35,540 bases of DNA from Gemmatimonadota bacterium (GTDB lineage: Bacteria > Gemmatimonadota > Gemmatimonadetes > Gemmatimonadales > GWC2-71-9), in contig QHTZ01000077.1 of assembly GCA_003221005.1 (NCBI GenBank), forward strand, positions 1-35,540, in the 5' to 3' direction. Below the pieces are notes generated by a model that saw only the letters and a list, made by a program, of their open reading frames with translations, was not told the DNA's origin and did not search any database. Of this stretch, positions 1-18,750 are shown in pieces. Position 1 is the stretch's first letter. Every line of letters starts with the position of its first letter. The translations under genes were made by a program, and so were the position numbers.

Positions 1-666
1 GTGGACCTGTATCTCATGGTCGGGGTCGGTGCGGCGAACGCCGGCGAGCTCGTGGTCGGCGGCCGGGGTATCGCGTTCGTGTGCCTCGAGCATTTCACCG
101 GGCGCGCCAATCCCCACACCTACGGGCTGGGCCTCGCACCGCACCTGTTGTCGCTGTGGATCGCGCACGAAGCGGCGCACGCGATCCGCTACACGTCCCC
201 GACCAGCCGCGCCGACCTGCGACGCCTAGTCGCGGAGCTGCGGGGCTCCTACGACTATTGGGACACAGGTAGCCGGGCGACGCTGCGCGAGCTGCTGGTG
301 AACGAGGGCGCGGCGGTCGCGGCCGCCCAGGCGGCGGCGCCCGGCTTCGAGCCGTGGGAGTACTTCGGCTACGCGCGGCGCCAGTTTCGGCGCTGCCGCG
401 AGCTCGACGCGTTCCTGCGACGGGTCGTCGCCCCGGAACTGGACCAGCGCGGCCTCGGGCTCCGGCTGCGCTACCTCTCGGGTGGGACGCGCGCCACGGC
501 CCGGCTCGCCGGGGGCAAAGTGCTGCCGGAGCGGTCCGGGTACTACCTCGGGCTGCGTCTGGTGGAGCCGTATCTTGCAGAAGCGGGGATCGCGTCGGCG
601 GTCCGGGCGGCGGCACCCGACTTTCAGAAGGCGGACGAGCGGGCGCTGGGAATGCAGACGGCATGA
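1..666 (+). CDS. Putative Zn-dependent protease, DUF2268-like (probably 5'-truncated by window edge)
   Basis: HEAAH (HExxH) motif followed by a downstream NEG third-ligand-type motif and a C-terminal GYxLG motif, typical of DUF2268-like gluzincins. Its stop overlaps the next ATG (ATGA). Confidence 0.65.
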   Translation: MDLYLMVGVGAANAGELVVGGRGIAFVCLEHFTGRANPHTYGLGLAPHLLSLWIAHEAAHAIRYTSPTSRADLRRLVAELRGSYDYWDTGSRATLRELLVNEGAAVAAAQAAAPGFEPWEYFGYARRQFRRCRELDAFLRRVVAPELDQRGLGLRLRYLSGGTRATARLAGGKVLPERSGYYLGLRLVEPYLAEAGIASAVRAAAPDFQKADERALGMQTA

Positions 667-863
667 GCCCGAAGCCGCGCGTGGAGCGGAGGACCAACCG
701 GCCGTTGCGCGAGGTGCTGGACGATCTGTTGACGCACGCGCGGGACGTCGCCCGGCGCGCCAAGGCGATGACGTCGGCCGAGTTGGACTACGCGCAGCAG
801 CGGCTCGAGTGGCTGGCTGACGAGGTGTGGCGCACGGCGACGGGCGACGAGCCGCCGCCGTGA
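663..863 (+). CDS. Small hypothetical helical protein (66 aa)
   Basis: MSPKPRVERR...GDEPPP; ATGA overlap with the upstream gene, fills the gap to the PTPS gene, amphipathic helical composition. Confidence 0.7.
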   Translation: MSPKPRVERRTNRPLREVLDDLLTHARDVARRAKAMTSAELDYAQQRLEWLADEVWRTATGDEPPP

Positions 864-880
864 GCACGGCGAAAGGGGCC

Positions 881-1390
881 ATGCCGGAGCGTAACGAGTT
901 CAGGGTGGCGGTCACGAACGACAACCTCGTGTTCGCGTCCGCGCACTTCATCATCTTCCCGGGTCACCGCTGCGAGCGGTTGCACGGGCATAACTACCGC
1001 ACCCGCGTCGTGGTCGAAGGCGGCCTCGACCCCGAAGCCCACTACGTCTTCGACTTCGCCGAGCTGAAGCACCTGATGCGGAGGCTCACCGACGAGCTCG
1101 ATCACCGGGTGCTGCTGCCGCTCGAGCACCCCAAGCTCCAGGTTCGAGAGCAGGGCGACACCGTCGCCGTGGCGTACGAGGGCAAGGCGCGCTACGTGTT
1201 CCCGAAAGCCGACTGCGCGTTGCTGCCCATCCCCAACACCACCGTGGAGATGCTCGCGCAGTACCTCGCCCGCCGCGCCCGCAGCGAGCTCGAGCGGACC
1301 GCCGGCGGCGCCGTGGCGCTGCGGGTGATCGAGGTCGAGATCGAGGAGAACTTCGGTCAGGCCGCCACATATCGCGAGTCGCTCGGGTGA
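881..1390 (+). CDS. 6-pyruvoyl-tetrahydropterin synthase / QueD family protein (COG0720), CExxHGH type
   Basis: FASAHF, CERLHGHNY, DF, LDH and PNTTVEMLA motifs of the T-fold PTPS family. Purine-rich SD (AAAGGGG) before ATG 881; alternative GTG at 860. Confidence 0.9.
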   Translation: MPERNEFRVAVTNDNLVFASAHFIIFPGHRCERLHGHNYRTRVVVEGGLDPEAHYVFDFAELKHLMRRLTDELDHRVLLPLEHPKLQVREQGDTVAVAYEGKARYVFPKADCALLPIPNTTVEMLAQYLARRARSELERTAGGAVALRVIEVEIEENFGQAATYRESLG

Positions 1391-1989
1391 CCGTCGAGAC
1401 GGTCGTCAAGGTGGGAGGCGGGGTGCTGAGCCGGGCGGGCGCCTTCGAGCTCGTCACCGGCGCGTTGGCGGCCTTCGGGCGGGGGCGCCGGGTGCTGGTG
1501 GTTCCCGGGGGCGGCCCGTTCGAGCAGGCAGTTCGCGAGCTGCTGCGTCGCCTCAAGATCGGCGTCGACGCCGCCCACTGGATGGCGGCCCTCGGCATGG
1601 ACCAATATGCGCACGCCCTCGTGGAGCGCACGACGGGTGCGGTCCTGGTGGAGCAGCCGCCCGAGATCGAGGCGGCGCTCGACGCGGGCAGCATCCCCGT
1701 GCTCGCTCCGTACCGCTGGCTGCGGACTGTAGATCCCCTGCCCCACACGTGGGACGCCTCGAGCGACAATGTTGCCGCGTGGATCGCCGGCGTCGTCGGC
1801 GCCCGGCGCATCGTGCTCATCAAGGCCGCCATGGGCGACCAACCCAAAGCGCTGGATCCCGCCTACCTGCGCGCTCTCCCCGCCGGCATGGACTCCGTGG
1901 TCCTCACCCCGAACGAATTGGAAAAGCTGGGCGACGCGCTCGCCCAGAGCCCAATCCCGCAGCAGCGACGTACGGTGCGCGAGGGCTGA
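1387..1989 (+). CDS. Amino-acid-kinase superfamily protein, MfnE/MJ0458/Orf21-like
   Basis: VVKVGGG, VVPGGGPF, AAHWMAALGMDQY and LPHTWDASSD motifs, characteristic of the short MJ0458-type kinases. GTGA overlap with the upstream gene. Confidence 0.8.
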   Translation: MTVETVVKVGGGVLSRAGAFELVTGALAAFGRGRRVLVVPGGGPFEQAVRELLRRLKIGVDAAHWMAALGMDQYAHALVERTTGAVLVEQPPEIEAALDAGSIPVLAPYRWLRTVDPLPHTWDASSDNVAAWIAGVVGARRIVLIKAAMGDQPKALDPAYLRALPAGMDSVVLTPNELEKLGDALAQSPIPQQRRTVREG

Positions 1990-2043
1990 GGGCGCCTTGT
2001 GGCGCCCGCGAAGGGTCCGGTAGGTTACGGTCCGGGAGATACC

Positions 2044-2874
2044 GTGTCCAAACAGAGTACAGAGGGAGCGGCCGCGCGACCCGCGCCTGCCGAGCGTGCC
2101 CGGGCGGGCGGGGAGGTGTCGCTCGCGGGCCAAGTTGTCCTCGTCACGGGGGCGTCGAGCGGGATCGGCCGGGCCATCGCGCTCGCGTGCGCGGGGTCAG
2201 GCGCGGACGTGGCCCTCACATACCACGGCAACCAGGCAGGCGCCGAGGGAACGGCTGACGCGGTCCGCGGCCTCGGGCGGCGGGCGGAAGTGCTGCGCGC
2301 GGACGTCGCCGAGCCTGCCGACGTCACGGCCCTCGCGCGCGGCGCCCAGGCGGCGTTCGGGCGCGTGGACGTGTGGATCAACAACGCCGGGGCCGACATC
2401 CTCACGGGGGCGGCGACCCGACTCTCCTGGGCAGAGAAGCTCGATCGCGTCCTGGCGGTAGATCTGCGGGGGACGGTGCTCGCCTCGTGGGCGGCGGTCG
2501 AGCTGATGCGACGACAGGAAACCGGTGGGACGATCCTCAACATGGCCTGGGACCACGTGCTCGGCGGCGGCACGAAGGGGGAATACGCCGAGATCTTCTG
2601 CGCCGCGAAGGGCGGCGTGTACAGCTTCAGTCGCGCGCTGGCGCGCACTGTCGCCCCGCACATCCGCGTGAACGTACTGGGACCGGGCTGGGTGGAGACC
2701 GCGTACGGGGCGGAGCTCGACCCCGCGGTCAAGGCGCGGATCACGGACGCGATTCCGCTCAAGCGCTGGGCCCATCCCGAGGAGATCGCCGCCGCTGCCG
2801 TGTTCCTCGCCTCCGACGCGGCGAGCTACATCACGGGACAGATGCTCGTGATCAACGGCGGCGCGGTGACGTAG
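2044..2874 (+). CDS. SDR family NAD(P)-dependent oxidoreductase, atypical active site
   Basis: TGASSGIG, NNAG and IRVNVLGPG motifs; FCAAK in place of YxxxK. GTG 2044 follows GGAG; the ORF is open from 1999, so the start is uncertain. Confidence 0.88.
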   Translation: MSKQSTEGAAARPAPAERARAGGEVSLAGQVVLVTGASSGIGRAIALACAGSGADVALTYHGNQAGAEGTADAVRGLGRRAEVLRADVAEPADVTALARGAQAAFGRVDVWINNAGADILTGAATRLSWAEKLDRVLAVDLRGTVLASWAAVELMRRQETGGTILNMAWDHVLGGGTKGEYAEIFCAAKGGVYSFSRALARTVAPHIRVNVLGPGWVETAYGAELDPAVKARITDAIPLKRWAHPEEIAAAAVFLASDAASYITGQMLVINGGAVT

Positions 2875-2891
2875 CCCCGAGGGAGACGATC

Positions 2892-3254
2892 ATGCCGAAG
2901 ACCAAGGAGCGCACCTACAGCGACGCCGAGATCCGGGACAAGCTCCACGCACTCCCCGGGTGGTGGCTCGAAGGCGGCATGATCTGCCGGACCTACCAGA
3001 CCGACGGCTGGCCGACCACCCTGATGCTCGTGAACGCCATCGGGTACATCGCCGAGGCCGCGTACCACCACCCGGACCTCGCGGTGTCGTGGGGTCAGGT
3101 GACCGTGAAGGTCAACAACCACGCCGCCGGCGGGATCACCGACAAGGACTTTGAGCTCGCTCGAAAGATCGAGGACGCCGCGCTGTGGCGGCCGCAGGGC
3201 GGCGCGCTCGAAGGGACACCGAACAAGTTCGTGCGGCCCGGCGACGCGCGGTGA
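2892..3254 (+). CDS. phhB: Pterin-4-alpha-carbinolamine dehydratase (4a-hydroxytetrahydrobiopterin dehydratase, PhhB/PcbD)
   Basis: AEAAYHHPDL and HAAGGITDKDFELA motifs; SD GAGGGAG upstream of ATG 2892. Confidence 0.92.
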   Translation: MPKTKERTYSDAEIRDKLHALPGWWLEGGMICRTYQTDGWPTTLMLVNAIGYIAEAAYHHPDLAVSWGQVTVKVNNHAAGGITDKDFELARKIEDAALWRPQGGALEGTPNKFVRPGDAR

Positions 3255-4711
3255 GCGACATGCTCCCGCTCGTCGAGGAGCTGTCACCGCCGCCCGACCC
3301 GCTCGAGACGTGCGCGCGGTTCGAGGGACTGCCTTTCCTGCTGTTTTTCGATAGCGCCACGCGGCACGAGAAGCTGGGGCGCTACTCGTTCCTCACGGCG
3401 GACCCGCCGGCCCTGATTCGCACCACTGGGGCGCACACCCAGCAGTGGACCCAGGCCACTGGGGACTGGACCCCCGCCTCCGGTGATCCGCTCGCCGCCG
3501 CACAACGCCTGCTCGGGCTTCACGCCGCCGCAGCGGTCCCCGGCCTGCCGCCCTTCCAGGGCGGCGTGGCTGGATACCTAGGATACGACTGGGGCGCGAC
3601 GCTCGAGCGCCTCCCGCGACCTCGCTATCCCGGCCTCCCCGTTCCCGATGCCGTGCTCGGCCTGTACGACTGGGTCATCGCCTGGGACCATGCCGGGCGG
3701 CGCGCGTGGATCATCGCGACCGGGCTCCCCGAGCGCGGGACGGCTCGAGTCGAGCGCGCAGCCGGGAGGCTCGCGTTCGTGCGAGCGCGGCTCGCGGACG
3801 GGCGCACGGGCGGACGGCCGGACGGGGCGCGTTCACGGCCCGCCGGTCCGCCGGTCCGCGTATCCGCCCCAACGTACCCCGTCCCCGGCGTACCAGGCGT
3901 TCGCTCGACCTTCACCCGCGACGGCTATCTCGACGCGGTGGCGCGCGTGATCGAATACACATTCGCGGGGGACATTTTCCAGGCGAACCTGTCACAGCGA
4001 CTCCAGTCACCCCTGATCGGGACGCCGCTGGCACTGTACCGCCGACTGCGCTCCCGCAATGCGGCCCCATTCTCCGCCTATCTCGATTGCGGCGACCACG
4101 TCGTCGCGAGCTCGTCACCGGAGCGGTTCCTCCGGGTGGCGGACGGCCAGGTGGAAGCGCGGCCGATCAAGGGGACGCGGCCCCGCGGGGCGGGCCCCGA
4201 GGACGACGCCGCGCTCGCCGTGGAACTCGCGACGAGCGACAAGGATCGCGCCGAGAACGTGATGATCGTGGATCTCCTGCGGAACGACCTGTCGCGCGTG
4301 TGCATGGCGGGGACGGTGTGCGCCCCGGAACTGTTCACCGTGGAGCGGTACGCCACGGTGCAGCACCTCGTGTCCACGGTCGTGGGGGATCTCGCCCTCG
4401 AGCGCGACGCGACGGACCTCGTGCGCGCGGCGTTCCCCGGCGGGTCCGTCACGGGCGCGCCCAAGGTGCGGGCCATGGAGGTCATCGCGGAGCTCGAGCC
4501 CACGGCGCGCGGCGTCTACTGCGGCGCGATCGGCTACTGGAGCGTGACCGGCGCCCTCGACACGAGCATCGCGATCCGGACCTGCGTTGTGTTGGGCGAC
4601 GAGGTCTTCTTTCAGGCCGGCGGCGGGATCGTCGCCGATTCGGATCCCGAGAAAGAGTACGCGGAAACGCTCGACAAAGCCCGCGGCTGGATCGCCGCGC
4701 TCGCGCCATGA
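3251..4711 (+). CDS. pabB: Aminodeoxychorismate synthase component I
   Basis: GRYS, PPFQGG, GDIFQANL, SSSPERF, PIKGTRPR (PabB-type), KDRAENVMIVDLLRNDL and FPGGSVTGAPK motifs. GTGA overlap; alternative ATG at 3260. Confidence 0.92.
   Translation: MSDMLPLVEELSPPPDPLETCARFEGLPFLLFFDSATRHEKLGRYSFLTADPPALIRTTGAHTQQWTQATGDWTPASGDPLAAAQRLLGLHAAAAVPGLPPFQGGVAGYLGYDWGATLERLPRPRYPGLPVPDAVLGLYDWVIAWDHAGRRAWIIATGLPERGTARVERAAGRLAFVRARLADGRTGGRPDGARSRPAGPPVRVSAPTYPVPGVPGVRSTFTRDGYLDAVARVIEYTFAGDIFQANLSQRLQSPLIGTPLALYRRLRSRNAAPFSAYLDCGDHVVASSSPERFLRVADGQVEARPIKGTRPRGAGPEDDAALAVELATSDKDRAENVMIVDLLRNDLSRVCMAGTVCAPELFTVERYATVQHLVSTVVGDLALERDATDLVRAAFPGGSVTGAPKVRAMEVIAELEPTARGVYCGAIGYWSVTGALDTSIAIRTCVVLGDEVFFQAGGGIVADSDPEKEYAETLDKARGWIAALAP
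3793..3868. repeat. Intragenic inverted octamer tandem repeat (GGCGGACG-like x4 / CGTCCGCC-like x4) in pabB
   Basis: cgcggacg-ggcgcacg-ggcggacg-gccggacg (3793-3824) and ggcccgcc-ggtccgcc-ggtccgcg-tatccgcc (3837-3868). Confidence 0.7.
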
Positions 4712-5658
4712 TCCTGCTGATCGACAACTACGACTCGTTCGTCCACAACCTGGCGCGCTACGTACGCGAGCTGGGGGAGGAAGCCGTCGTGCGGCGCCAC
4801 GACGCCACGACGCTGAAGGAGATCGCGGCGCTCGGGCCGTCGCACATCATCATCTCGCCGGGTCCGCGCTCGCCCGCCGAAGCGGGGATCTCGACTGAGG
4901 TGATCCGGCGGTTTCGGGCCACGACGCCGATCCTCGGTGTGTGTCTCGGGCACCAGTGCGTCGCGGCGGCGTACGGCGCCGCGATCGTGCGGGCGGCGCG
5001 GCCGATGCACGGCAAAGCTTCCGAGATCCGGCACGACGGCCGCGGCATCTTCACTGGGCTGCCCAATCCGTTCCGGGCGGCTCGGTATCACTCGCTCGTG
5101 GTCGCGCGCGAGAGACTGCCCCAGGAACTGCGAGTCACCGCGACCGCCGAGGACGGCGAGATCATGGCGATCGCGCACGCGCGCCATCCCGTGATCGGGC
5201 TGCAGTTCCATCCCGAGTCCGTGCTCACCGAGCACGGCTACCGCCTGCTCGACCGGTTCCTGAGCGGGCCCGCCGCGCGGGGCGAGCTGCTTCCCGACCG
5301 CGCCGACGGCGCGCGGTCACTTCCCGACGCAGAAGGTCGCGAACACACGCGCGAGGACGTCGTCGGGCGTCACGACGCCGATCAGCTCGTCGAGCGCGGT
5401 GACCGCGGCGCGGAGGTGCGTCGCCGCGGCGGCCGCCTCGACTCCCTGGGCCCGCGCCGCGCGGAAGCCGTCGACCTCGTCGAGCGCGCGCTCGAGAGCG
5501 AGGCGGTGGCGGGCGCGCGTCACAACGGGCTCGACGTCTCCTCCAGCGAGCAGACGCCCAAACGCGGCCTCGGCGAGACGGCGCTTGAGAGTGTCGAGCC
5601 CTTCGCCGGTCAACGCGGACACAAGAGGGACGGGGGACGGGGGACGGGGGACGGGTAA
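4708..5658 (+). CDS. pabA: Aminodeoxychorismate/anthranilate synthase component II (class I glutamine amidotransferase) with long C-terminal run-on
   Basis: MILLIDNYDSF, SPGP, GVCLGHQ, RYHSL and QFHPES motifs; ATGA overlap with pabB. The domain ends near 5265 but the first in-frame stop is 5656-5658. Confidence 0.9.
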   Translation: MILLIDNYDSFVHNLARYVRELGEEAVVRRHDATTLKEIAALGPSHIIISPGPRSPAEAGISTEVIRRFRATTPILGVCLGHQCVAAAYGAAIVRAARPMHGKASEIRHDGRGIFTGLPNPFRAARYHSLVVARERLPQELRVTATAEDGEIMAIAHARHPVIGLQFHPESVLTEHGYRLLDRFLSGPAARGELLPDRADGARSLPDAEGREHTREDVVGRHDADQLVERGDRGAEVRRRGGRLDSLGPRRAEAVDLVERALESEAVAGARHNGLDVSSSEQTPKRGLGETALESVEPFAGQRGHKRDGGRGTGDG

Positions 5659-6669
5659 GAGATCCGCCTTCGTCCGCACCATGATGACCGGTGCGCTACA
5701 CGCTGCGAGGAAGTCGTCGCGGTCGTCGCCGTCCCCCGTCCCTCGTCCCTCATCCCCCGCTTCGCAGAACACGATCAGGTCCGCGGCGCCGAGGTATCGT
5801 CGGGAGACCTCGATCCCCAGCCGCTCCACCCGCTCATCGCTCTCGCGCAGCCCCGCCGTGTCCACGAGCCGAAACGGAAACCCTTCGATCACCGCCGTGG
5901 CCTCGATCGCGTCCCGGGTAGTCCCGGGGATCTCGGTCACGATGGCGCGCTCGCGTCCCAGCAGCGCGTTGAAGAGCGACGACTTCCCGGCGTTGGGTGG
6001 CCCCGCGATCACCAGCAGCGCCCCCTCCCGCAGCCGCTCGCCTTCCGGCGCGGTCGCGAGCAGCTGGGCGAGCCGGTCGCGGACCACACACCACGCCCGC
6101 TCCACGCGCTCCGCGGAGACCGGCCCTTCGTCCTCTTCGGGAAAGTCGATGTCGTAGGCGAGCAGCGCCTCGAGCTCGAGCAGTTCGGCGCGCAGCGCCT
6201 CAAGGCGATGGGACAAACCGCGGTCGAGCTGCTGCAGCGCGCGGCGGCGCTGCGCAGGGGACCCGGCGTCGATCAAGTCCGCGGTCGCTTCGGCCTGCAA
6301 CAGGTCCAGCTTGCCGTTCACGACCGCGCGGCGCGTGAACTCGCCGGCCTCGGCGAGCCGCGCGCCCGCAGCGACGAACGCCGCGACCGCATCGGCCGGC
6401 ACCAGAAGTCCACCGTGGGCGAATACCTCCACCACGTCTTCGCCGGTGTAGGAGCGCGGCTCCGCATAACGGACGACGAGCGGCTCGTCGATCAGCTCGC
6501 CAGTGGTGGGATGCGCGAGGCGCGACCGCGTCACGGTGCGCGGCGTGTCGGGGAACGGACGGAGACACCGCCCGGCAACCGTGAAGGTTCCTGACCCGGA
6601 GAGACGGATCACAGCGAGCGCAGACCGCCCCGGCGGCGTGGCGAGCGCCACGATGGGATCCGACAACAC
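5317..6669 (-). CDS. mnmE: tRNA uridine-34 modification GTPase MnmE/TrmE
   Basis: IVALATPPG, SYTGEDVVE, GEFTRRA, G1 GPPNAGKSS, GTTRD, DTAG and C-terminal FCVGK motifs; conserved position after yidC. Confidence 0.97.
   Translation of the reverse strand: MLSDPIVALATPPGRSALAVIRLSGSGTFTVAGRCLRPFPDTPRTVTRSRLAHPTTGELIDEPLVVRYAEPRSYTGEDVVEVFAHGGLLVPADAVAAFVAAGARLAEAGEFTRRAVVNGKLDLLQAEATADLIDAGSPAQRRRALQQLDRGLSHRLEALRAELLELEALLAYDIDFPEEDEGPVSAERVERAWCVVRDRLAQLLATAPEGERLREGALLVIAGPPNAGKSSLFNALLGRERAIVTEIPGTTRDAIEATAVIEGFPFRLVDTAGLRESDERVERLGIEVSRRYLGAADLIVFCEAGDEGRGTGDGDDRDDFLAACSAPVIMVRTKADLLPVPRPPSPVPLVSALTGEGLDTLKRRLAEAAFGRLLAGGDVEPVVTRARHRLALERALDEVDGFRAARAQGVEAAAAATHLRAAVTALDELIGVVTPDDVLARVFATFCVGK
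5625..5758. repeat. Intragenic inverted heptamer tandem repeat (GGGGGAC x4 / GTCCCCC-like x4) in mnmE
   Basis: gagggac-gggggac-gggggac-gggggac (5625-5652) and gtccccc-gtccctc-gtccctc-atccccc (5731-5758). Confidence 0.8.
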
Positions 6670-6682
6670 CGTCCCTCTTCCC

Positions 6683-8338
6683 CTAGGTCTGCCGGCCCTG
6701 CTGCCGCAAGCGGCGCTGCGCGATGCGGTACTGTTGCGGGATGCTGAAGATGTTCGACACCGCGTAATACAGATTCAGTCCGGACGCGAACCGCAGAAAC
6801 AGCACCGTCATGAAGATCGGCATGAAATAGAGCATCGTGGTGGACTGCGGGTTCGGCGGTACGCCGATCTGCCCCACTTTCGAGAGCACGAACATCGACA
6901 GCCCCATCATGAGCGGGATGATGTAGTAGGGGTCAGCGCGCGACAGGTCTGGCAGCCAGAGAAACGGCACTCCGCGGAACTCGATCGTGTTGGCGAACAC
7001 GAAAAACAGCGCGAACAGCACCGGCATCGGCAGCAGCATCGGGAGACAGCCGCCCAACGGGTTCACCTGGTGCTCGCGGTAGATCTTCATCATCTCCCGC
7101 TGCAACCGCTCCGGCTCGTCCTTGTACTTCTCTTGTGTCGTCTTGATGAGCGGCGCCGCCCCCTGCATCCGGATACTCGACTCCATCGCCCGCTGATTCA
7201 GGGGCCAGAGCAGCACGCGCACCAGAATGCCGAAGATGACGAGCACCCAGCCGTACGCCAGGTGCAGCTGCTCGTGCATCCACAACAGAATGTTCACGAC
7301 CAGGTTCGAGACGGGTTGGATCACCGAGCGCAAGAAGCCGCCGTACGGGTTAGCGTCGTCGAGGTCGTGCCCGATGCGGGCGAGGCGGCGGTATTCGAGC
7401 GGGCCGGCGTATACGTCGTAGCGGAAGTCGCCCGCGGACGGCACGGGCAGCGTGACCGACACGGCGGCGCGAGGAGTCGCGTGGCCCCCGCCGGAGCGCG
7501 CACCGCCCACCGCGATACTGCCGGCGAACTTCGGCCGAGGGTCCTCCAGCGCCAGCGCCGCCACCAGGAAGTACTTCGACTTCACCCCGATCCACTCGAA
7601 CGGGCCATCGAGCACCTTCGCCTCGCCGGGCTTCAGCGATTGGAAGGACGTGCTCTGGGTTTTCGACGACTTGGTCACGACCGCGTAATGACGAGCGTCG
7701 TCGGCCGAGTCCGCTTCTACTGACTTCAGCCCGTCCCCCAACCCCACGACCAGCACCGCTCCCGTGGACCCGAGCCCGGCCACGTGGCCCGTGACCTGGA
7801 ACCGGTAGTCGTCGGGCGAGAACACGTACTCGAGCGTGATCCGCGCCCCCCCTCCGGCACGCTCGGCCGCGAAGGTGAGCCGCGTGCTGTCGTGCTCCAC
7901 GCGAAGCGCGGCGACGTTCGGCGCGAAGCTCCAGTCGGCGAGCCGAACGGTATCGCCGCCGCCGACAAGACGGGACGTGAGGACAGCGTCACCCCGCGGT
8001 ACGAGCTGCACGGGCCGCCCGCTGTCGCTCGGCGCAAACGACCGAAAATCAAGGAGTTCCGCATGGACGAGAGCACCACCGCGGGTGCTGAAGCCGAACC
8101 GGTAGCGGGGCGAGGTGACCCACACAGTGTCGGCCGGACGGTCGGACGGTCGGACGGTCGGATTGAAGGACGGTCGCTCCGCAGCCGCTGCCGATTCCGC
8201 GCGAGCGACTGGCGGAATCGCCGTGCTATCCGACCGTCCAACCGTCCGACCGACCGGCTTCTTGGGTGGAAACAGAATGCTCGGCACCACGGCCACGATC
8301 AGCATCAGGACGATTGCCAGAATGACGCGTCGTTCCAC
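6683..8338 (-). CDS. yidC: Membrane protein insertase YidC
   Basis: N-terminal TM, large periplasmic domain, YAGP, NPLGGCLPMLL, FLWLPDLSRADP and SGLNLYY motifs. Confidence 0.97.
   Translation of the reverse strand: MERRVILAIVLMLIVAVVPSILFPPKKPVGRTVGRSDSTAIPPVARAESAAAAERPSFNPTVRPSDRPADTVWVTSPRYRFGFSTRGGALVHAELLDFRSFAPSDSGRPVQLVPRGDAVLTSRLVGGGDTVRLADWSFAPNVAALRVEHDSTRLTFAAERAGGGARITLEYVFSPDDYRFQVTGHVAGLGSTGAVLVVGLGDGLKSVEADSADDARHYAVVTKSSKTQSTSFQSLKPGEAKVLDGPFEWIGVKSKYFLVAALALEDPRPKFAGSIAVGGARSGGGHATPRAAVSVTLPVPSAGDFRYDVYAGPLEYRRLARIGHDLDDANPYGGFLRSVIQPVSNLVVNILLWMHEQLHLAYGWVLVIFGILVRVLLWPLNQRAMESSIRMQGAAPLIKTTQEKYKDEPERLQREMMKIYREHQVNPLGGCLPMLLPMPVLFALFFVFANTIEFRGVPFLWLPDLSRADPYYIIPLMMGLSMFVLSKVGQIGVPPNPQSTTMLYFMPIFMTVLFLRFASGLNLYYAVSNIFSIPQQYRIAQRRLRQQGRQT
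8135..8256. repeat. Intragenic inverted octamer tandem repeat (CGGACGGT / ACCGTCCG) in yidC
   Basis: Three perfect CGGACGGT at 8135-8158 plus two degenerate units to 8174; gctatccg-accgtcca-accgtccg-accgaccg at 8225-8256. Confidence 0.8.
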
Positions 8339-8347
8339 GATGGACTC

Positions 8348-8575
8348 TCAGGGCACCGGGTCGAACCCGCCCGGGTGGAAGGGGTGGCAGCGGGCCACAC
8401 GCTTCACGCCGAGCCAGCTCCCCTTCATCGCCCCGTAGCGTGCGACTGCTTCGAGGGTGTAGTGCGAGCAGGTGGGAGTGAAGCGACACTGGGTGAACAC
8501 CAGATGCGCGAGCGTCATCTGGTAGCCGCGGATGAGTGCCATCACAGCGAACCGCGGCCAGCGACTCACGCTCAT
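8348..8575 (-). CDS. yidD: Membrane protein insertion efficiency factor YidD
   Basis: [10 protein letters not shown] and [14 protein letters not shown] motifs; ATG overlaps the rnpA stop. Confidence 0.95.
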
Positions 8576-8910
8576 GTGACGTGGCTCACGCCGCCCGTCA
8601 ATTCGGCGCGCAGCCCTGCAAAGGAGGCGGCGTACGCGGAGCGCTTCGCGCGGACGACGAGATCGATCGCCGGTACGCGTACGAGCAGCTCGCGCCTGAG
8701 CAACTCCCTCAGGCGTCGCCGCAGGCGATTGCGGGCCACGGCGGTGAACTGGAAGCGAGGAACGATGATGCCGACTCGCGGGTGGTGTGCTCGAGTGGGG
8801 CGCCAGGCGAACTCGAGGTGCGTGCCGCGCCAATGACGCCCTTCTTCCCAGCAGGCGGTGAGCTCCGAACCGCGCGCCAAGCGGACGCGGCGCGGAAACC
8901 GCTCGTCCGT
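8572..8910 (-). CDS. rnpA: Ribonuclease P protein component (start uncertain: first canonical codon is TTG at 8880)
   Basis: FPRRVRL N-terminal motif, RVGIIV and [13 protein letters not shown] (RNR motif); lies between rpmH and yidD. Confidence 0.92.
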
Positions 8911-9072
8911 TCAGCGACTCCGGTGCTTGGACGGCAGGCGGAGGGCGATGCGCTTGCGCCCCTTCTTGCGCCGCCGCGAGAGGACCGCGCGGCCCCACAC
9001 CGTGTTCATGCGCGCGCGAAAGCCATGCTTGTTGATGCGCCGCCGGTTGCGCGGGCGGTAGGTCGGACCCAT
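8911..9072 (-). CDS. rpmH: 50S ribosomal protein L34
   Basis: Manually translated (not in the ORF track): [53 protein letters not shown]; divergent from dnaA. Confidence 0.97.
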
Positions 9073-9096
9073 TAGATTCCTCTCGTGAGGCGGGGA

Positions 9097-9126
9097 AACC
9101 TACACCGCGCTCCGCGGACCGGTCAA
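9097..9126 (-). promoter_or_regulatory. Putative sigma70 promoter of the rpmH operon
   Basis: TTGACC-N18-TAGGTT on the minus strand. Confidence 0.55.
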
Positions 9127-9128
9127 GG

Positions 9129-9157
9129 TTGACTTTTCCACAGGCGAGCCGTAGTTT
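9129..9157 (+). promoter_or_regulatory. Putative sigma70 promoter of dnaA with an embedded DnaA box
   Basis: TTGACT-N17-TAGTTT. TTTTCCACA (9134-9142) matches the TTWTNCACA DnaA box and overlaps the -35/spacer, consistent with autoregulation. Confidence 0.65.
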
Positions 9158-9196
9158 CGGGCCGCCCTGCGAGACCCCCACCTTCTTTCATCGTCG

Positions 9197-10582
9197 ATGG
9201 AGCAGTCAACAAAGGAAGCCTGGAAGCGCCTCCTCGACGAGGCGCGGCGTGAACTCCCCGACGCGACAGTGCGGACGTGGCTCGAGCCGGCCGAGCCGAT
9301 CGCGCTCGACGACGGGCGGCTGATCGTCGGGGCCCCGGATCAGTTCGCCGTCGAGTGGAACGAGTCGAAGCACGCGGGAGTGCTCGCCCGCGCGGCCGAG
9401 CGGGTCTTCGGGCGACCCACCAGCATCGTGTTCCGCGTGCAAGAGGATCGCCAGCGGCGACCGCAGATGGATTTCTTCGTCGCGCCACGCGACGCCGGCG
9501 CCGCAGGCGACAAGCTCGCCGTCGCCACGACGCCGCTCAACGAGCGCTACACCTTCCAGACGTTCGTCATCGGCAAATCGAACGAGCTCGCCGCCGCCGC
9601 GGCTCACGCCGTCGCCGAAGCGCCGGGAAAGACCTACAACCCGTTGTTCATCTACGGCGCGACCGGCCTCGGCAAGACGCACCTGATGCAGGCGATCGCC
9701 CACGCGGTGCTGGAGAAGAACCCCGAGATGCGGCTCCAGTATTTCGGCGCCGAGCAGTTCATCAACGAGGTGATCGAGTCGATTCACGCGCGGACGATGT
9801 CTGAGTTCCGGCGGCGCTACCGCAACGACGTGGACCTGTTCCTGGTGGACGACGTGCATTTCCTCGAAGGCAAGGAGATGACGCAGGAGGAATTCTTCCA
9901 CACGTTCAACGCGCTGTTCGAGGCGCACAAGCAGATCGTGCTCACCTCGGACCGCCCGCCGAAGGAGATCCCGGGCCTGGAAGACCGGCTCATCTCGCGG
10001 TTCGAGTGGGGCATGGTCGCGGACATCGGTCACCCCGATCTCGAGCACCGCATCGCGATCCTCCGCAAGAAGGCCGAGCAGGATCATCTCGAGCTCACGA
10101 TCCCGGACGACGTGCTGCGCTTCATCGCCGAGCACATTCGCTCGAGCGTGCGCGAGCTCGAGGGCTGCATCATCAAGTTGTTGCTGTTCGCGTCGCTCAA
10201 GAACCGCGAGGTCACGATCGAGCTGGCCCGCGAGGCCCTGTCGGACAAGATTCGCCAGGGGGAGGAGGGCGCGAGCTACGTCGGCCAGCCGACGCCCAGC
10301 ATCGACCGCGTGCAGGAAGTCGTGGCGCGCCGCTGGGGCGTGACGCCGGAAGGCCTGCGCTCCAAGGCCCGCACCAAGACGCTCACGATCCCGCGACAGG
10401 TCGCGATGTACCTCGCGCGCGACATGCTGGGGATGCAGCTGGTGGAGATCGGTCAGGCGTTCGGCGGCCGCGATCACTCCACGGTCATCCATTCCGTGGA
10501 CAAGGTCGAGCGGCAGATGATCCGAGACCGGACGTTCAAGGAGCGCGTCGAAATGGCGCGCCAGGAGTTGTCCGCACTGTAG
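9197..10582 (+). CDS. dnaA: Chromosomal replication initiator DnaA
   Basis: YNPLFIYGATGLGKTHL, LVDDVHF, QEEFFHTFN, SRFEWG and GGRDHSTVIH motifs. Confidence 0.99.
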   Translation: MEQSTKEAWKRLLDEARRELPDATVRTWLEPAEPIALDDGRLIVGAPDQFAVEWNESKHAGVLARAAERVFGRPTSIVFRVQEDRQRRPQMDFFVAPRDAGAAGDKLAVATTPLNERYTFQTFVIGKSNELAAAAAHAVAEAPGKTYNPLFIYGATGLGKTHLMQAIAHAVLEKNPEMRLQYFGAEQFINEVIESIHARTMSEFRRRYRNDVDLFLVDDVHFLEGKEMTQEEFFHTFNALFEAHKQIVLTSDRPPKEIPGLEDRLISRFEWGMVADIGHPDLEHRIAILRKKAEQDHLELTIPDDVLRFIAEHIRSSVRELEGCIIKLLLFASLKNREVTIELAREALSDKIRQGEEGASYVGQPTPSIDRVQEVVARRWGVTPEGLRSKARTKTLTIPRQVAMYLARDMLGMQLVEIGQAFGGRDHSTVIHSVDKVERQMIRDRTFKERVEMARQELSAL

Positions 10583-10818
10583 CGCACATGTGGGAAGGAC
10601 ATGTGACGGGGTGTGGGTAGGCGCGGCGCGCGTGTGGACGGGCCTCAGGATGCCAACAGTCCCAACACTCCGCCAACATGCGCCGGCGAGGTCACGCCGC
10701 ATCGCCACCGAGCGTTAGCGCGACCGTCCACATCTCCCTGCTCTCTACTGCTACTACGAGTAGTTTCTATATAGTATAGAAGTAGAGTCTTTCACCGCTT
10801 CAAGAGGACTCGGCCGGC
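10583..10818. other. Putative replication origin (oriC)
   Basis: dnaA-dnaN intergenic region with degenerate DnaA boxes (TGTGGGAAG 10589, TGTGGGTAG 10612, TGTGGACGG 10633, CCGTCCACA 10724), DnaA-trio-like CTACTGCTACTAC (10745-10757) and a strongly AT-rich tract (10761-10793). Confidence 0.75.
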
Positions 10819-11925
10819 ATGAAGTTCACGATCACACGGCAGCAACTGCAGGAGGGCCTGGCGGCGGTGGCCGCAGCCGTGCCTGCCAAGACGACGCTCC
10901 CAGTGCTGGCGAACGTGCTGGTTGAAGTCGGCAAGCAGGGGCTGCGCCTGTCCGGCACGGATCTGGACATCGCCGTGAGTACCACCGTCGCGGCTGACGT
11001 CGACGCCGAGGGCGCCGTCACCCTCCCCGCGAAGAAACTGGTGGACATCGCCCGCGAGCTGCCCGAGGGACCGGTGCGGATCACCGCCGCCGGCGAATCG
11101 CGCGTGTCGATCGAATGCGGTCGCGCCAAGTTCAAGCTGCTTGGCCTGCCGCGCGAGGAATATCCGTCGTTCCCCGCGGTGAAATTCGACGGCGCGTGGA
11201 AGGCGGCCGCAGGAGTGGTCCACAAGCTCGTGGGGCACGTGGCGTTCGCAGCCTCGAGCGAAGAGAGCCGGCCGATCCTGAACGGCGTTCTGTGGGAGCT
11301 CCGCCCTGACCGGATGCGGATGGTAGCGACCAACGGTCACCGCCTCGCGAAGATGGATGTTCCCGCGAGCGGCGGCTCGACCGCCGACCTGATCGTGCCG
11401 CCCAAGGCCCTGGAGCAGATCCGGCGTCTGATCGCCGCCGATGCCGAGATGGAGATCGCCCGCAGTGACAACCACCTCGGCTTCCGGGCCGGTGGCACGC
11501 TCGTGTTCTCCCGCCTGATCGAGGGCCCCTATCCCAACTACGAGCAGGTGATCCCACGGGAGAACGACAAGTCGGCGACCGTGGACAAGGCCGCCATGGC
11601 CGCCGCGCTGCGGCGCATGAGCGTCGTCGCGAGCGACCAGACGCACCGCATTCGGCTCGCCTTCTCCGGAGGGTCGGTGCGTTTCTCGGTCCAGACGCCC
11701 GACCTGGGCGAGGCGCAGGACGAGCTCTCGGTCACCTACGAGGGCGAGCCGCTCGAGATCGGGTTCAACGCGATGTACCTGCTCGAGATCCTCAAGTTCA
11801 TGCCGACCGACGAGGTGCGCCTCACTTTCAAGGCGCCGGAGCGCGCGGCGACCGTCGAGCCAGTAGGCTGGGATGATCCCGCGAGCTATATGGCGCTCGT
11901 GATGCCTCTGCGCCTCGTAGACTAA
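10819..11925 (+). CDS. dnaN: DNA polymerase III beta sliding clamp
   Basis: TLPVLANVL, GTDLD, RPILNG, VATNGHRL, RLIEGPYPNY, IGFN and C-terminal LVMPLRL motifs. Confidence 0.99.
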   Translation: MKFTITRQQLQEGLAAVAAAVPAKTTLPVLANVLVEVGKQGLRLSGTDLDIAVSTTVAADVDAEGAVTLPAKKLVDIARELPEGPVRITAAGESRVSIECGRAKFKLLGLPREEYPSFPAVKFDGAWKAAAGVVHKLVGHVAFAASSEESRPILNGVLWELRPDRMRMVATNGHRLAKMDVPASGGSTADLIVPPKALEQIRRLIAADAEMEIARSDNHLGFRAGGTLVFSRLIEGPYPNYEQVIPRENDKSATVDKAAMAAALRRMSVVASDQTHRIRLAFSGGSVRFSVQTPDLGEAQDELSVTYEGEPLEIGFNAMYLLEILKFMPTDEVRLTFKAPERAATVEPVGWDDPASYMALVMPLRLVD

Positions 11926-14346: not shown

Positions 14347-15231
14347 CTACGGCAGGACGGCGACGGTGGAGCGGAGTACCTGGGTGACGGGTACCGTGAG
14401 GCCCTGCGCCGGCAGCGAGATCGTCAGGCTCGACGAGTCCTGTGACTCGCCGCCCACGAACCGCCCGTCCTCGGCGAGAAACGTCCGTGCGGTGACGGTC
14501 CCCGCGCCGCCGATCTGGAAGAATTGCCCGCCGTTCTGCCCTGAGCCGGCCACGCTGTAGGTGCCGGTCGTCTCGAGTCGCAGGCTGCGCGCCCCGCTGT
14601 GCTCTTCCCAGGCCGCCGCGCTCGAATGCTGCACGGAGCGCCGCGTGACTTCTGAGCCGCCGGCGCGCTGGGTGAGGGAGAGGGTGTCGGTCCAGGCGGC
14701 GCCCAGACGGGCACCGTCCGTGGGAATACGCGGCAGGAAATCGCGAAAGTTGCCGAGCAGCTGCGCGAGGTTGCGCGCGAGGACGCTGTCGGACGTCGCC
14801 GTGCTCCGAAACTCTCCCTGGGCAACCACGCGGCCGCTCATGATCAACATGCGCGCCTTCGAGATATTGTCGGCGATCGGCGGAGGCGTGCCGGAGTCGG
14901 GAACGATCGAGTCCACGATAAACGTGGCCGGGTAGCCACTCGAGTCCGCCGGCCCCGTGACGATGGCCCGGACGAAGATGTGAGCACCCAGGTCCTGCGT
15001 CTGGGGCGCTCCGCTGAACGTCTGCTCGATGTGCAGCCGGCGGTGGATCAGATAGCGTACGGCGCTCGGGCCGTAGCGCACGGCCTGGGGGAGTGCGTGC
15101 CGCTCGCCGGGCCGCGGGGGCGGAGGTGGGGCGGGCGCGGGGTTGGGCGCGGCTGCTCCCGGGCCGGCCCCGCCGCGCGCCGCGCAGGCGGTGAGCAGTG
15201 CGGCGCCTCCCGCGCGGAGCCAGCGCCTCAT
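14347..15231 (-). CDS. Hypothetical lipoprotein
   Basis: Signal peptide MRRWLRAGGAALLTAC (lipobox), Pro-rich linker, beta-rich body; ATGA overlap with the upstream small ORF. Confidence 0.8.
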   Translation of the reverse strand: MRRWLRAGGAALLTACAARGGAGPGAAAPNPAPAPPPPPRPGERHALPQAVRYGPSAVRYLIHRRLHIEQTFSGAPQTQDLGAHIFVRAIVTGPADSSGYPATFIVDSIVPDSGTPPPIADNISKARMLIMSGRVVAQGEFRSTATSDSVLARNLAQLLGNFRDFLPRIPTDGARLGAAWTDTLSLTQRAGGSEVTRRSVQHSSAAAWEEHSGARSLRLETTGTYSVAGSGQNGGQFFQIGGAGTVTARTFLAEDGRFVGGESQDSSSLTISLPAQGLTVPVTQVLRSTVAVLP

Positions 15232-15476
15232 GTGCCCCCTACCGCGCCCCGGCCGCGCTCGTGAGCTCGATCGGTTTTCGTGCGTCCGAAGATCGCCACC
15301 ATCTCCGGCCCGTCGCTAGAAACGCGCAGCAGCTTCCAGCCGCGCTTGCGCATGTCGGCGCGCCACCCGATGAGCTTCTCCCACTCCTGGGACGTGGTGC
15401 GGAAGACCCGCAAGTCCGCCACCGTTTCCCATTGGGGCGGATACGGCTTTAGTTGGGAGGAGGGCGGTGGGGCCAT
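15228..15476 (-). CDS. Small hypothetical protein downstream of and overlapping rnpB
   Basis: 82 aa with complex Trp-rich sequence (PQWETVADLRVFRTT...RGWKLLRV); its stop is coupled to the lipoprotein ATG. Confidence 0.7.
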   Translation of the reverse strand: MAPPPSSQLKPYPPQWETVADLRVFRTTSQEWEKLIGWRADMRKRGWKLLRVSSDGPEMVAIFGRTKTDRAHERGRGAVGGT

Positions 15477-15874: not shown

Positions 15875-17959
15875 CTAGCGCGCCAACCGCCGCAGCGCCT
15901 GGGCCACACTGTCGCTCGTCGACCGCCCGGCGTCGAGCCTGCCCCGCGCAGCGGTCCCCTCCCCTGCGGAGAGCCAGAAGCCGTCGTTCTGGCCAAAGAC
16001 GAGCGGCTTCAAAGTGGCCAGGTTGCGCACTCGCACGAGGGCCGAGGGAAGCTCCACCGCGTGCACGGCGTCGAGGCCGCGCGCGCGATAGGCGGCGAGC
16101 AGACGGCGCGTCATCACCTCCGGGGTGAAGACCAGCAACGGGCGGTCCGGGAGCGCAAAGCCGCGCAACAGGCCGAGCGAGAACCAGTCTCCCGGAGCCT
16201 GCCGCAGCCGGAAAGCGAAATACAGACCCGGGCGCTCCTTCAATACCCGGTCCCGGATACCGCGCGCGTGCTCGGCAACCAGCGCTTCGAGTGCCTGGTA
16301 GTACGCCGGTAGTAGCCCGGCATCCCGCAGGGTGCGATAGCGCTCGACCACGGGCAGCGAATCGAGCGGGCCGTGCCGGCCCATGCGCCTGATGGCTTGG
16401 CGCCACGCGGCGTCGCAGAATTCTTGCCCCATGGAGTAGCCGGTGAACTGGCCGCGCGGCAACGGACCGAGGTCGAAGGCGAGCGCGGGGACGAGCTGCC
16501 GGAGGCCGGCAGCGAGGCGGGCGAGGGTGACGACGGCGGGCACCACGCGGTCATCCCAGAACGCCGAGTCGAGGGCGCACGCCGCGCTCAGCGGCTCGCC
16601 GCGGATGCCGCGCGATGAATCGGCCCAGCCGGCGGGGGGCCGGAAGTCGCCGAACGCTGCCGCCGGAATCCAGGCCACACTGGTGGGCTGCAGCAGGCTC
16701 GCCGCGTCGCTCCAGGCGCGTCGCACGGCACTGCGCTCCTCCCACCGGTGGTGGAGCGAGTCGGCGACGGTCTCCGGGTCCGCATCGCCCGCCAGCAGGT
16801 TCAGTCCCGCCTGGTCGAGGAAGCCGACCAGCGAGTCGAGCGCCGCCGTGGAGCGCGGTGCGGGACCCTCCTCTCGCGGGAGCAGCAGCGGCGCCCACAG
16901 CGCCCGCATCCCCATCTGCCGGATCCATCCTGGGACGCCGCTCGCACGGGTGGTATCCCGCTTCGCCGGCCACGCTAGCGGCTCGGCCGTCACGCCCGGC
17001 GGCGGCTCCGCGAGGGGCGGCTGGATCTCGACCGGAAGTGGCGCGCCGGCGAGCGTCGCGGGCGTAGGGTGCTCCGCGGGCGGCACGTGTGCCCACTCAG
17101 CGGGGCGGCGGGTCCAGCGGGCGAGCGCCGTGAGAAAGTCGTGCGTTGCGGCGAGGGCGCCGAGCTGGAGCAGCGGCATGGTGCTAGGCCGATTCTCCGG
17201 TCCCAGGGCCCCAAGCGCGTGGCGACTGAGCACCACTACCAAGCCGTCGCCCACCCGAGCCGCCGCTGCGATCGGAGCGCCGCCGCGCGGCGTCGCGGCC
17301 TTCGGCGTGCGCACGAAGGCGCGGCGGCCTGCAACGGCGAGCACCTCGGAGCTGCGCCTCACTTCGAGCGCATGGTTGCGGCCCATGGGGAATGGGTCGT
17401 ACACGGATCCGAGGGGGTCGTCGCCGAGGCGTCGCCCCTCCGCCCAGGACTGGGTGCGCGGCGGGACGCTGCGCACTGTGGTGTCCTCCAGGGCCCCGTC
17501 CCCGATGGCGATGCCGGCCCCTTGTGAGGCGAGCCAGCGGTTCGCGACCCAGCGGTCGAGCGTCCCCTCTCCCTCTCCGGCGTACCCCAGCACGGCCACG
17601 CCGCCGCCCGGCACCCACGCGTCCAGGATGGCGAGATCGCCGGCGGTGAGCCCGTCCGACGGAGCCTCCGGCTCGCGGCCCAGGAGCAACAGCACCGTGT
17701 GGTAGCGGGCGAGGTCAGCGGTGGTGAGGTGGGGATAAAAACGGCGGTACTCGACGGTATATCCGGCGTCGTGCCAGGGGCGGGCGGTACCCTCGATCAA
17801 GGCGGGATCGGAGAGCATGAGGTCCAGTACCAGCGCGCGCCGCGCCTGCGGCTGGCACGCGCTGACGAAGAGCGCGGCGGCGGCGAGGAGCCGGCCACTC
17901 AGGGCGCGTACTGCGCGAACGGCTGGAGCGCCTCCCGCAGCTCGGCAGCGGTCTGCCAT
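15875..17959 (-). CDS. Large hypothetical lipoprotein (two-domain; start may be CTG 17902)
   Basis: Long ORF with signal and lipobox [12 protein letters not shown], an N-terminal alpha/beta region, a Pro-rich linker and a C-terminal domain; no family recognised with confidence. Confidence 0.78.
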
Positions 17960-18750
17960 CGCTCCGCCGCCGCCTTGGCGAGCGCGCGGACGATGATTGC
18001 GGCGAGCGGCTTGGGCACCTCGCGGCGCAGGGCGCGGAGGTCCGGGGGGGCCCGGTGCTGCTGCATGTCCAGGACCGCGGCGGCGCTGGGGGACGAGAAC
18101 GGCGGCCGCCCGGCGAGGGTCTCGAACAGCACGACCCCGAGCGAGTACAGGTCGGTCCGGCCATCGATGTCAGGGGAGCCGGCCGCCTGTTCCGGGCTCA
18201 TGTATTCCTCCGTGCCGACGACGAAGCCGCTGCGGGTCACACGGTCCTCGCCCGAGCGCGCGATCGCTCGCGCGATGCCGAGATCCACGAGGACGGCACC
18301 GTGGTCCGAGAGCACGATGTTGTCCGGCTTGATGTCCCGGTGCGCGATGCCGTGCGCGTGAGCGTACTCGAGCGCGTCGAGCACCTGGCACGCCAGCGTG
18401 ACCGCCCGTGCAATGTCCAGGCGGCGCTCGCGGCGGAGCACCTGCCGCAGGCTTTCGCCCTCGACGTAGGGCATCACGAACCACAGCAGGTAGTCCGATT
18501 CGCCGCTGTCGAGGAAGCGGGCGATGTGCGGGTGGTCGAGGCGCGCGGCATAGCGCATCTCCCGAAGGAAGCGATCAGCCGCCACCGATACGGTGAGCTC
18601 GGGGTGGAGCACCTTGATCGCGACCCGTCTTCCCGCCGGATCCGCGGCGCCGAATATCGCGGCGTTGCCGCCGCGCCCGATGGCGGAGATCACCGTGTAG
18701 CGGTCGCGCAGTGCCTCGCGTACCCGCTCGATCAGCTCGCGTCCCGGCAT
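17899..18750 (-). CDS. Stand-alone Ser/Thr protein kinase
   Basis: [31 protein letters not shown] and DLYSLG motifs. Confidence 0.93.

Follow-up and report, generated by a model that had tools for sequence, protein, structure and literature searches.

In methylotrophic Proteobacteria an 'archaeal-like' gene cluster has been described that unites fae, mtdB, mch, fhcABCD, orf5, orf7, orf9, orf17-22 and mptG, and the available portions of the same article report that MfnB, MfnE and MfnF work in sequence toward the furan core, Orf22, Orf21 and Orf9 being their assumed bacterial counterparts (PMC8141765). Among the paralogues of 6-pyruvoyl-tetrahydropterin synthase (PTPS; COG0720), the motif ExxHGH is stated to mark PTPS-III, which bypasses FolB, the motif CxxxHGH to mark QueD, and CExxHGH hybrids to be able to serve both pathways (PMC5041015, in the sections available). 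Relatives of both systems meet in six consecutive genes near the beginning of a DNA stretch of 35,540 nucleotides (the window, bases 1-35540 of contig C100), which belongs to a Gemmatimonadota metagenome-assembled genome (MAG), referred to here as G000 (2.79 Mb, 141 contigs, 93.9% complete, ~70% G+C). These genes encode a PTPS paralogue, an MfnE/Orf21-family kinase, a short-chain dehydrogenase/reductase (SDR), a pterin-4a-carbinolamine dehydratase (PCD), PabB and PabA.

The six genes are probably the remnant of an island for tetrahydromethanopterin (H4MPT) and methylofuran, which now serves mainly as a folate-precursor operon. In relatives of G000 the functional set of the proteobacterial cluster is likewise found in one island, with the difference that the island of Gemmatimonadota and Acidobacteriota also embeds a PTPS-III-type gene, the SDR, PCD, a gene resembling dihydropteroate synthase (DHPS-like) and pabBA, whereas the window retains only the six-gene remnant. 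As to the PTPS-III and PTPS-I/III enzymes, the window gene shares with them the CExxHGH motif, a genome without FolB and the clustering with pabB and pabA, and it differs in having lain ancestrally inside an H4MPT/methylofuran island, a bacterial context not met in the available sections of PMC5041015. According to the scheme that we favor, an ancestral island of ~25 kb would have encoded H4MPT/methylofuran-linked formaldehyde oxidation together with the synthesis of its cofactors, and every pathway-specific gene would have been deleted at the same site, between the DUF2268 and small67 genes on the left and mnmE on the right. PTPS would convert dihydroneopterin triphosphate to 6-hydroxymethyl-dihydropterin, standing in for the missing FolB, PabA and PabB would make aminodeoxychorismate, and FolE, FolK and FolP, encoded elsewhere, would complete the folate route; the SDR and the MfnE-like kinase would be surviving island genes, neither of which could perform its presumed island role here. 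The parts are all of known kinds, namely a PTPS-III bypass, PabAB, a PCD and an MfnE-family kinase. In the literature searched, which was non-exhaustive and partly available as excerpts, no description was found of the island as it occurs in Gemmatimonadota and Acidobacteriota, pterin genes included, nor of a six-gene remnant with an orphan kinase. A search linking methanopterin, carbinolamine dehydratase and orf21 returned nothing relevant, the available portions of Chistoserdova 2016 (PMC5020050) make no mention of Gemmatimonad*, Acidobacteria, pabB or pterin, and those of PMC10994693 do not discuss H4MPT genes in the Gemmatimonadales MAG described there.

The ancestry of the locus is best seen in a comparison set of 41 genomes of the order, which includes G000, 24 other genomes of the same family and 16 from two other families. 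The kinase is present in 12 of the 24 same-family genomes and in none of the 16 others (0/16), and the surroundings of the island, taken from 11 of these 12 kinase-bearing relatives, follow one order: fhcA-fhcD-fhcC-mch-mptN-like ATP-grasp gene-citG-like gene-PTPS-(hisAF-related gene, minus strand)-mfnF-like gene-kinase-(mfnB-like gene, minus strand)-SDR-PCD-DHPS-like gene-pabB-pabA-DUF447-mptG. FhcA, FhcC, FhcD, Mch, TIGR03123 and MptG score over their curated NCBIfam cut-offs, and the MptN-like, MfnB-like and DHPS-like members remain below theirs. The island is preceded by DUF2268 and small67 in G001, G003, G005 and G006, and is followed by mnmE and then yidC in G001, G003 and G005 (dnaA also in G003); the interval between small67 and fhcA in G003 is occupied by fae, an mtdB-like gene and a further ATP-grasp gene. 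A species-level scan, with one genome per species, yielded 80 loci, labelled as 59 Gemmatimonadota, 18 Acidobacteriota, 2 Actinomycetota and 1 without label, and in 80/80 of them the kinase stands beside an mfnB-like, mfnF-like or hisAF-related gene, most also having SDR, PCD, DHPS-like and pabBA genes. Island context was found in 74/80 metagenome loci as well. Because this context recurs in relatives, the six window genes are to be regarded as regular members of a conserved H4MPT/methylofuran island.

Some features of the island were observed in addition. The island of G001 has no hisAF-related gene, and its tblastn matches for FhcD, Mch and PabB and for the citG-like, PTPS, mfnF-like, mfnB-like and DHPS-like proteins are split, which could reflect frameshifts from decay or long-read errors. 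Many island loci end, behind mptG, in matches to a pyrroloquinoline quinone (PQQ)-dependent dehydrogenase; a gene for such an enzyme follows PCD in the island-less G004 (locus L029, 10118-11845), and the homologue of G000, 47.5% identical, lies on contig C121.

G000 has lost the remainder of this island. Nothing corresponding to mptG (TIGR00144) or mch (PF02289) was found in its assembly, and tblastn with the proteins of relatives found no fae, mtdB, fhcA, fhcC, fhcD, mfnB-like, mfnF-like, hisAF-related, citG-like, DHPS-like or DUF447 gene; the island proteins matched the six genes and distant paralogues (a RimK-type ligase and HisA), the mptN-like ATP-grasp query finding only the RimK-type paralogue at ~30% identity. 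Mch occurs in exactly the 12 kinase-bearing relatives, and G000 is the sole genome of the 41 that has the kinase and no Mch. When G000 is compared with G001, G003, G005 and G006, five blocks are gone at the same site between DUF2268-small67 and mnmE: fae to the citG-like gene, the hisAF-related and mfnF-like genes, the mfnB-like gene, the DHPS-like gene, and DUF447 with mptG. The pabA frame of the window runs on past its usual end, which looks like a footprint of the last of these deletions, since the removal of DUF447 and mptG would have taken the end of pabA with it. Of the words sampled from the stretch, half or more were found in each of 19 soil DNA runs from 15 studies, and four junctions are bridged, with no differences from the window, by contigs of three runs from other studies: PTPS/kinase at 1172-1472 in X4 and 1109-1433 in X6, kinase/SDR at 1531-2194 in X4, PCD/pabB at 3122-4269 in X4, and pabA/mnmE at 5222-5654 in X3, X4 and X6. 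The arrangement is not an assembly error.

What the remnant is likely to do at present is indicated above all by its PTPS. The window protein carries the motif CERLHGH, and CExxHGH is found in 137/137 orthologues. FolB (PF02152) was not found in G000, and PTPS and FolB were observed to complement each other across the 41 genomes, the window-type PTPS being present in 22, FolB over its cut-off in 15, both in 0 and neither in 4 (G020, one of these four, was counted in this tally only). The best solved structures, 3lze, 2a0s and 1y13, which we take to be Plasmodium PTPS, match the protein over its full length with 80-88 bits and with the Glu aligned, and QueD structures match its first half only (~47 bits). 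The gene is also kept in all nine relatives that have the window-type PTPS and lack the kinase and Mch (9/9), where its neighbors are PCD (G008, G010, G015, G016, G033), PCD and pabBA (G022), SDR and PCD (G004) or pabBA (G017, G023). FolE, FolK and DHPS score over their cut-offs elsewhere in G000. PabA and PabB both pass curated cut-offs, and the only other chorismate-binding and amidotransferase genes of G000 resemble TrpE and TrpG, the former being 40% identical to PabB and split over the ends of contigs C77 and C102. Judging from this gene content, the operon most likely now supplies 6-hydroxymethyl-dihydropterin and aminodeoxychorismate for folate. Folate-precursor supply would be its main role since a CExxHGH PTPS occurs without FolB, since FolE, FolK and FolP are encoded elsewhere and since PTPS is kept in island-less relatives; the enzyme activities named here are all predictions.

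G000 holds further genes of pterin metabolism outside the window. A PTPS-II-type paralogue (C-x5-HGH, biopterin route) lies directly beside FolE on contig C118 at ~43800-44790 (L003), and another paralogue without the active-site Cys lies on contig C102 at ~32780-33200 (L005), where the neighbors look molybdenum-cofactor-like by eye. The dihydropteroate synthase (contig C93, L001 1117-2283) has 388 aa and includes an N-terminal extension of ~125 aa without family match.

With regard to the kinase, both motifs that the earlier sequence-only note had quoted are present in the window protein, as AAHWMAALGMDQYAH and DPLPHTWD, and its assignment to the MfnE/Orf21 group rather than to the UMP, aspartate or acetylglutamate kinases proved right, because MfnE is the top family and homologues are fused to MfnF-like or MfnB-like proteins. 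The best NCBIfam match is MfnE (NF040622) with 52.7 bits against a cut-off of 300, followed by ArgB with 22.5 bits. Among 1.84 billion representative proteins, 2422 relatives were found at E <= 0.001, and of the 23 scanned by NCBIfam all have MfnE as top kinase family (23/23) and none reaches the cut-off (0/23); in seven of them a TIGR03123/MfnF-like protein (over its cut-off) is fused to the kinase at full length, another three are pieces of fusions of this kind, and one joins an MfnB-like protein to the kinase. The homologues that bear names are Gemmatimonadales, and the nearest solved structure is PDB 7qrh (E = 4.4e-10). The G000 protein thus resembles MfnE (MJ0458)/Orf21, the [5-(aminomethyl)furan-3-yl]methyl phosphate kinase, in its fold, in its best family and in the mfnF-/mfnB-like neighbors or fusions of its orthologues. 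It keeps 16/16 family-wide invariants, and differs by its low score, by changes at two nearly invariant positions (T125S and S128N) and by the missing MfnB-like and MfnF-like genes. Because these two are missing, the MfnE substrate would have no source and the product no user in G000, and by its gene context the kinase is orphaned.

The SDR is an island gene as well, because its orthologues are confined, among the 41 genomes, to the 12 island genomes, G000 and G004. Pteridine-reductase-type SDRs (FolM/PTR1) carry the motif TGxxxRxG, whereas the window protein has TGASSGIG (TGxxxGIG); its TmpR score (NF012208) is 140 bits where 325 are required, and among solved structures FabG and glucose dehydrogenases come nearest. 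Motif and score set it apart from SDRs of the FolM/PTR1 and TmpR types. A role as substitute for dihydrofolate reductase was considered and set aside. FolA (PF00186, strong matches) occurs in 7/41 genomes and in 0/14 of the SDR-bearing ones, 20 genomes having neither FolA nor SDR; ThyA occurs in exactly the same seven genomes, adjacent to FolA, and the remaining 34/41 have neither ThyA nor FolA. The mutual exclusion of FolA and SDR gives no support to such a role, because the thyA-folA linkage accounts for it. In our reading the SDR is still of some use to the cell.

The PCD scores over its cut-offs (PF01329, 26; NF002017, 80), and its catalytic motif EAAYHHP...W...H...D is intact when compared by eye with the signature reportedly given by Naponelli in 2008. 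The family is found in 39/41 genomes, FolB-bearing ones included, and a search of G000 for an aromatic amino acid hydroxylase (Biopterin_H) found none. Naponelli and colleagues are reported to have described 'partnerless' PCDs (COG2154) in organisms that lack aromatic amino acid hydroxylases; the window PCD is one more such case, with no difference found. It belongs to the near-universal housekeeping genes of the order, and its retention calls for no particular explanation. A specific tie of the PCD to the PTPS-III-type gene was likewise rejected, for the two are adjacent in many island-less relatives, yet the PCD family is present in 39/41 genomes.

The features of the locus and of its flanks are collected in Table 1.

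Table 1. Features of the six-gene locus and its flanks (positions in the window).
Feature	Coordinates	Strand	Family match or remark
DUF2268 gene, cut at contig start	1..666	+	PF10026, 40.2 bits
small67, ORF of ~67 aa	660..863	+	no Pfam or NCBIfam match
PTPS paralogue, PTPS-I/III hybrid type	881..1390	+	PF01242, 90.6 bits
MfnE/Orf21-family kinase, amino-acid-kinase fold	1387..1989	+	PF00696, 54.5 bits
Conserved intergenic element TTGTGGC-N17-TAGGTT, ahead of SDR	1997..2026	+	putatively promoter-like
Classical SDR (ORF 1999-2874; likely start GTG 2044 or 2116)	2044..2874	+	PF13561, 178 bits
PCD, COG2154 type	2892..3254	+	PF01329, 88.7 bits; NF002017, 96.7 bits
PabB, aminodeoxychorismate synthase component I	3251..4711	+	TIGR00553, 359.9 bits (cut-off 328.4)
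PabA (GATase domain 4708-5280)	4708..5658	+	PF00117, 195.3 bits, residues 3-185; TIGR00566, 223.2 bits (cut-off 121.05)
mnmE, conserved right flank, convergent	5317..6669	-	Pfam MnmE_helical and TrmE_N

Open reading frames (ORFs) and family matches confirm the six genes, their common strand and their place as given in the earlier note, which was also right that folP, folK, folC and phhA are absent from the window, as judged by Pfam scans of GC3-selected ORFs. Its description of all six genes as tightly coupled holds in part: there are 4-nt overlaps at PTPS/kinase, PCD/pabB and pabB/pabA and a spacing of 17 nt between SDR and PCD, but the kinase and the SDR are separated by a gap of 54-126 nt. 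This gap contains the element TTGTGGC-N17-TAGGTT, the ends of which are conserved around a variable spacer in 41/102 related loci, island-type and reduced alike. A strict sigma-70 consensus scan found no promoter in 500-5800, the element included. The arrangement suggests two transcription units, with a putative promoter at 1997-2026 ahead of the SDR; when translated, the element resembles a conserved 'N-terminal extension' of the SDR. From the only RNA run came one contig of 338 nt (2848-3185) and two short pieces, for which carry-over of DNA is possible, and the parts that this run leaves uncovered, the kinase included, carry no information. The end of the operon, which the note had placed at ~5270, has to be revised, as the pabA frame has no stop there and stays open to 5658, antisense across the 3' end of mnmE. 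The PabA proteins of relatives (215-224 aa) align only up to 5319-5334 in the window, leaving a run-on of ~107 codons past the homology, antisense to the last 342 nt of mnmE, and the contigs of the three other runs show zero differences in this region (5222-5654).

On the left, DUF2268 orthologues with 74-84% identity stand beside the locus in same-family relatives whether or not the island is present, and the gene is a conserved left flank of the locus in the family. The small67 ORF always follows directly after DUF2268, with or without the island, at 69-83% identity (tblastn; relatives and metagenome loci). To the right of mnmE lie yidC, rnpA, dnaA and dnaN, and since the operon adjoins this mnmE-yidC-rnpA-dnaA-dnaN cluster (5317-11925) the replication origin is probably near. 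Further downstream, the window contains three Ser/Thr protein kinase genes, an AraC-type regulator and a chemoreceptor between 12688 and 24000, and two long ORFs without Pfam match at 14350-15315 and 15878-18169.

The reduced arrangement is not confined to G000. The order PTPS-kinase-SDR-PCD was found in 6/80 metagenome loci and in 0/80 species-level loci, the kinase identity to G000 being 96-99% in L049-L051, 83% in L052, 68% in L060 (where mnmE follows and pabB is absent) and 63% in L074. In all reduced loci the PTPS stop overlaps the start of the kinase in the same GTGA, and for this reason a single old deletion is likely. An independent origin of the reduced form was also considered, as the SDR tree and a three-gene tree put L074 apart from G000 and L060; yet a single reduced clade was not rejected by the approximately unbiased (AU) test (p = 0.085), and with the common junction a single origin is more likely.

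Selection on the surviving genes could be followed within this clade. For the kinase, dN/dS amounts to 0.255, 0.294 and 0.325, and to 0.205 against L074, compared with 0.064-0.192 in ten island-type pairs; for the SDR it is 0.108-0.151 in the reduced clade versus 0.111-0.214 in island-type loci. The ratio of kinase to SDR distance is 1.33-1.58 in reduced versus 0.87-1.41 in 54 island-type loci, and PCD evolves faster relative to SDR after the loss of the island. The invariant W122 of the kinase has become A, R or G in three of the four deep reduced lineages, L060 showing G42R and H64Y in addition, and G004 has no kinase, having lost it in one block while SDR and PCD were kept. Purifying selection on the kinase is relaxed though still real, and the constraint on the SDR is full. 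A count of deviating positions had been tried as a sign of kinase decay (5-7 of 49-52 positions versus a mean of 0.25-0.38 in island-type loci), but in the control the PCD (5/59) and PTPS (4/62) of G000 deviate as much as the kinase; distance ratios and dN/dS were used instead because the count alone is not specific. As a separate observation, the kinase of L051 (96% identity) has an in-frame deletion of 7 codons that removes part of the conserved stretch IPVLAPY.

Several results weigh against the view that the remnant is now mainly a folate-precursor operon. Kinase and SDR are intact ORFs with dN/dS well below 1 in lineages that have diverged to 63-83% kinase identity, and the kinase was spared by deletions on both sides; a function of both proteins independent of the island is indicated, because both should decay if they had no role. 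No aminodeoxychorismate lyase over a curated cut-off was found in G000, one of its two class-IV aminotransferases scoring as IlvE and the other as D-amino-acid-transaminase-like, and for this reason the final step to p-aminobenzoate (pABA) is without an assigned gene. The window PTPS also has the CxxxHGH motif and a match to TIGR03367 (QueD) of 68.9 bits, below the cut-off of 89.25, and G000 has QueC, so that by motif the enzyme possibly doubles as QueD. Lastly, G000 is a fragmented MAG of 141 contigs and 93.9% completeness, and for that reason absence from the assembly is no proof of absence.

The alternative that fares best, although we consider it unlikely, is a self-standing pterin module composed of PTPS, kinase, SDR and PCD, which selection would have maintained once the one-carbon (C1) pathway had been lost. 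The kinase would then have a second substrate, another hydroxymethyl or hydroxymethyl-phosphate compound such as a pterin or an isoprenoid phosphate, the SDR would reduce a pterin side chain or ring, PCD would recycle the product, and folate would be only part of the job. Such a module would agree with the retention of the four genes in G000 and six metagenome loci, that is, in four distinct lineages with kinase identities of 63-99%, with a kinase dN/dS of 0.2-0.33 free of frameshifts in the four deep lineages and an unchanged constraint on the SDR, with the age of the deletion suggested by the GTGA junction, and with the two separate deletions that flank the kinase, whereas G004 lost it in one block; the PTPS-II-type paralogue beside FolE moreover means that G000 may also make a pyruvoyl-type pterin. 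On the other hand, W122 has changed to a different residue in each of three deep lineages, which points to relaxation and not to a newly conserved specificity, the kinase is completely gone from G004, the reduced form is missing from the 80 species-level loci, the Biopterin_H search found no tetrahydropterin-using partner enzyme in G000, and for L052, L060 and L074 the absence of mfnB and mfnF was read at the locus only. Taken together, it seems doubtful that the MfnE-family kinase and the SDR have a function independent of methylofuran and methanopterin and that selection keeps them as a module in this soil Gemmatimonadales lineage.

The earlier note had proposed that the host obtains a methanopterin- or methanofuran-like cofactor from the operon, with PTPS and SDR replacing the usual steps. 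All six genes are orthologous to genes of the H4MPT/methylofuran island and the kinase is of the MfnE family, and the proposed link stands as one of ancestry; as a present function in G000 it does not, since mptG, DHPS-like, MfnB-like, MfnF-like, Mch, Fae, MtdB and FhcACD were not found in the assembly, and the syntenic site is assembled contiguously without island genes, in agreement with contigs from other studies. Cofactor supply in this host is largely refuted and we hold it to be very improbable. Two findings that the note itself had named as speaking against it were indeed made, the genome showing no H4MPT/methanofuran genes and the operon probably serving folate-precursor supply, and a third, a grouping of the kinase with ordinary kinases, was not. 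That the reduced arrangement is an artefact of assembly or binning and the real genome carries the full island is hardly credible, for although the MAG is fragmented and the window begins at a contig end, the junctions are clean with 4-nt start/stop overlaps, four are covered by other runs without differences and six independent metagenome contigs have the same order.

The preferred explanation of the locus, a decayed island now mainly serving folate, shows by which route a complex cofactor island may decay and where its gene set overlaps with that of folate metabolism: once FolB is gone, no loss of the PTPS-III-type gene occurs; PCD is retained, as pabBA often are, and the C1-specific genes disappear. 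It also carries a warning for annotation, in that an 'MfnE' call or a methanopterin-like operon is no proof that the organism uses the cofactor. If kinase and SDR did function independently, the annotation of bacterial Orf21 homologues as 'MfnE' would be incomplete, the kinase would phosphorylate a second substrate and the SDR would act on a pterin still required by the cell, and the module would give a starting point for finding what partnerless PCDs do; an orphan kinase still under selection poses in this regard a small and directly testable question. More generally, the form that the island takes in Gemmatimonadota and Acidobacteriota yields candidates for unassigned steps of bacterial methanopterin synthesis.

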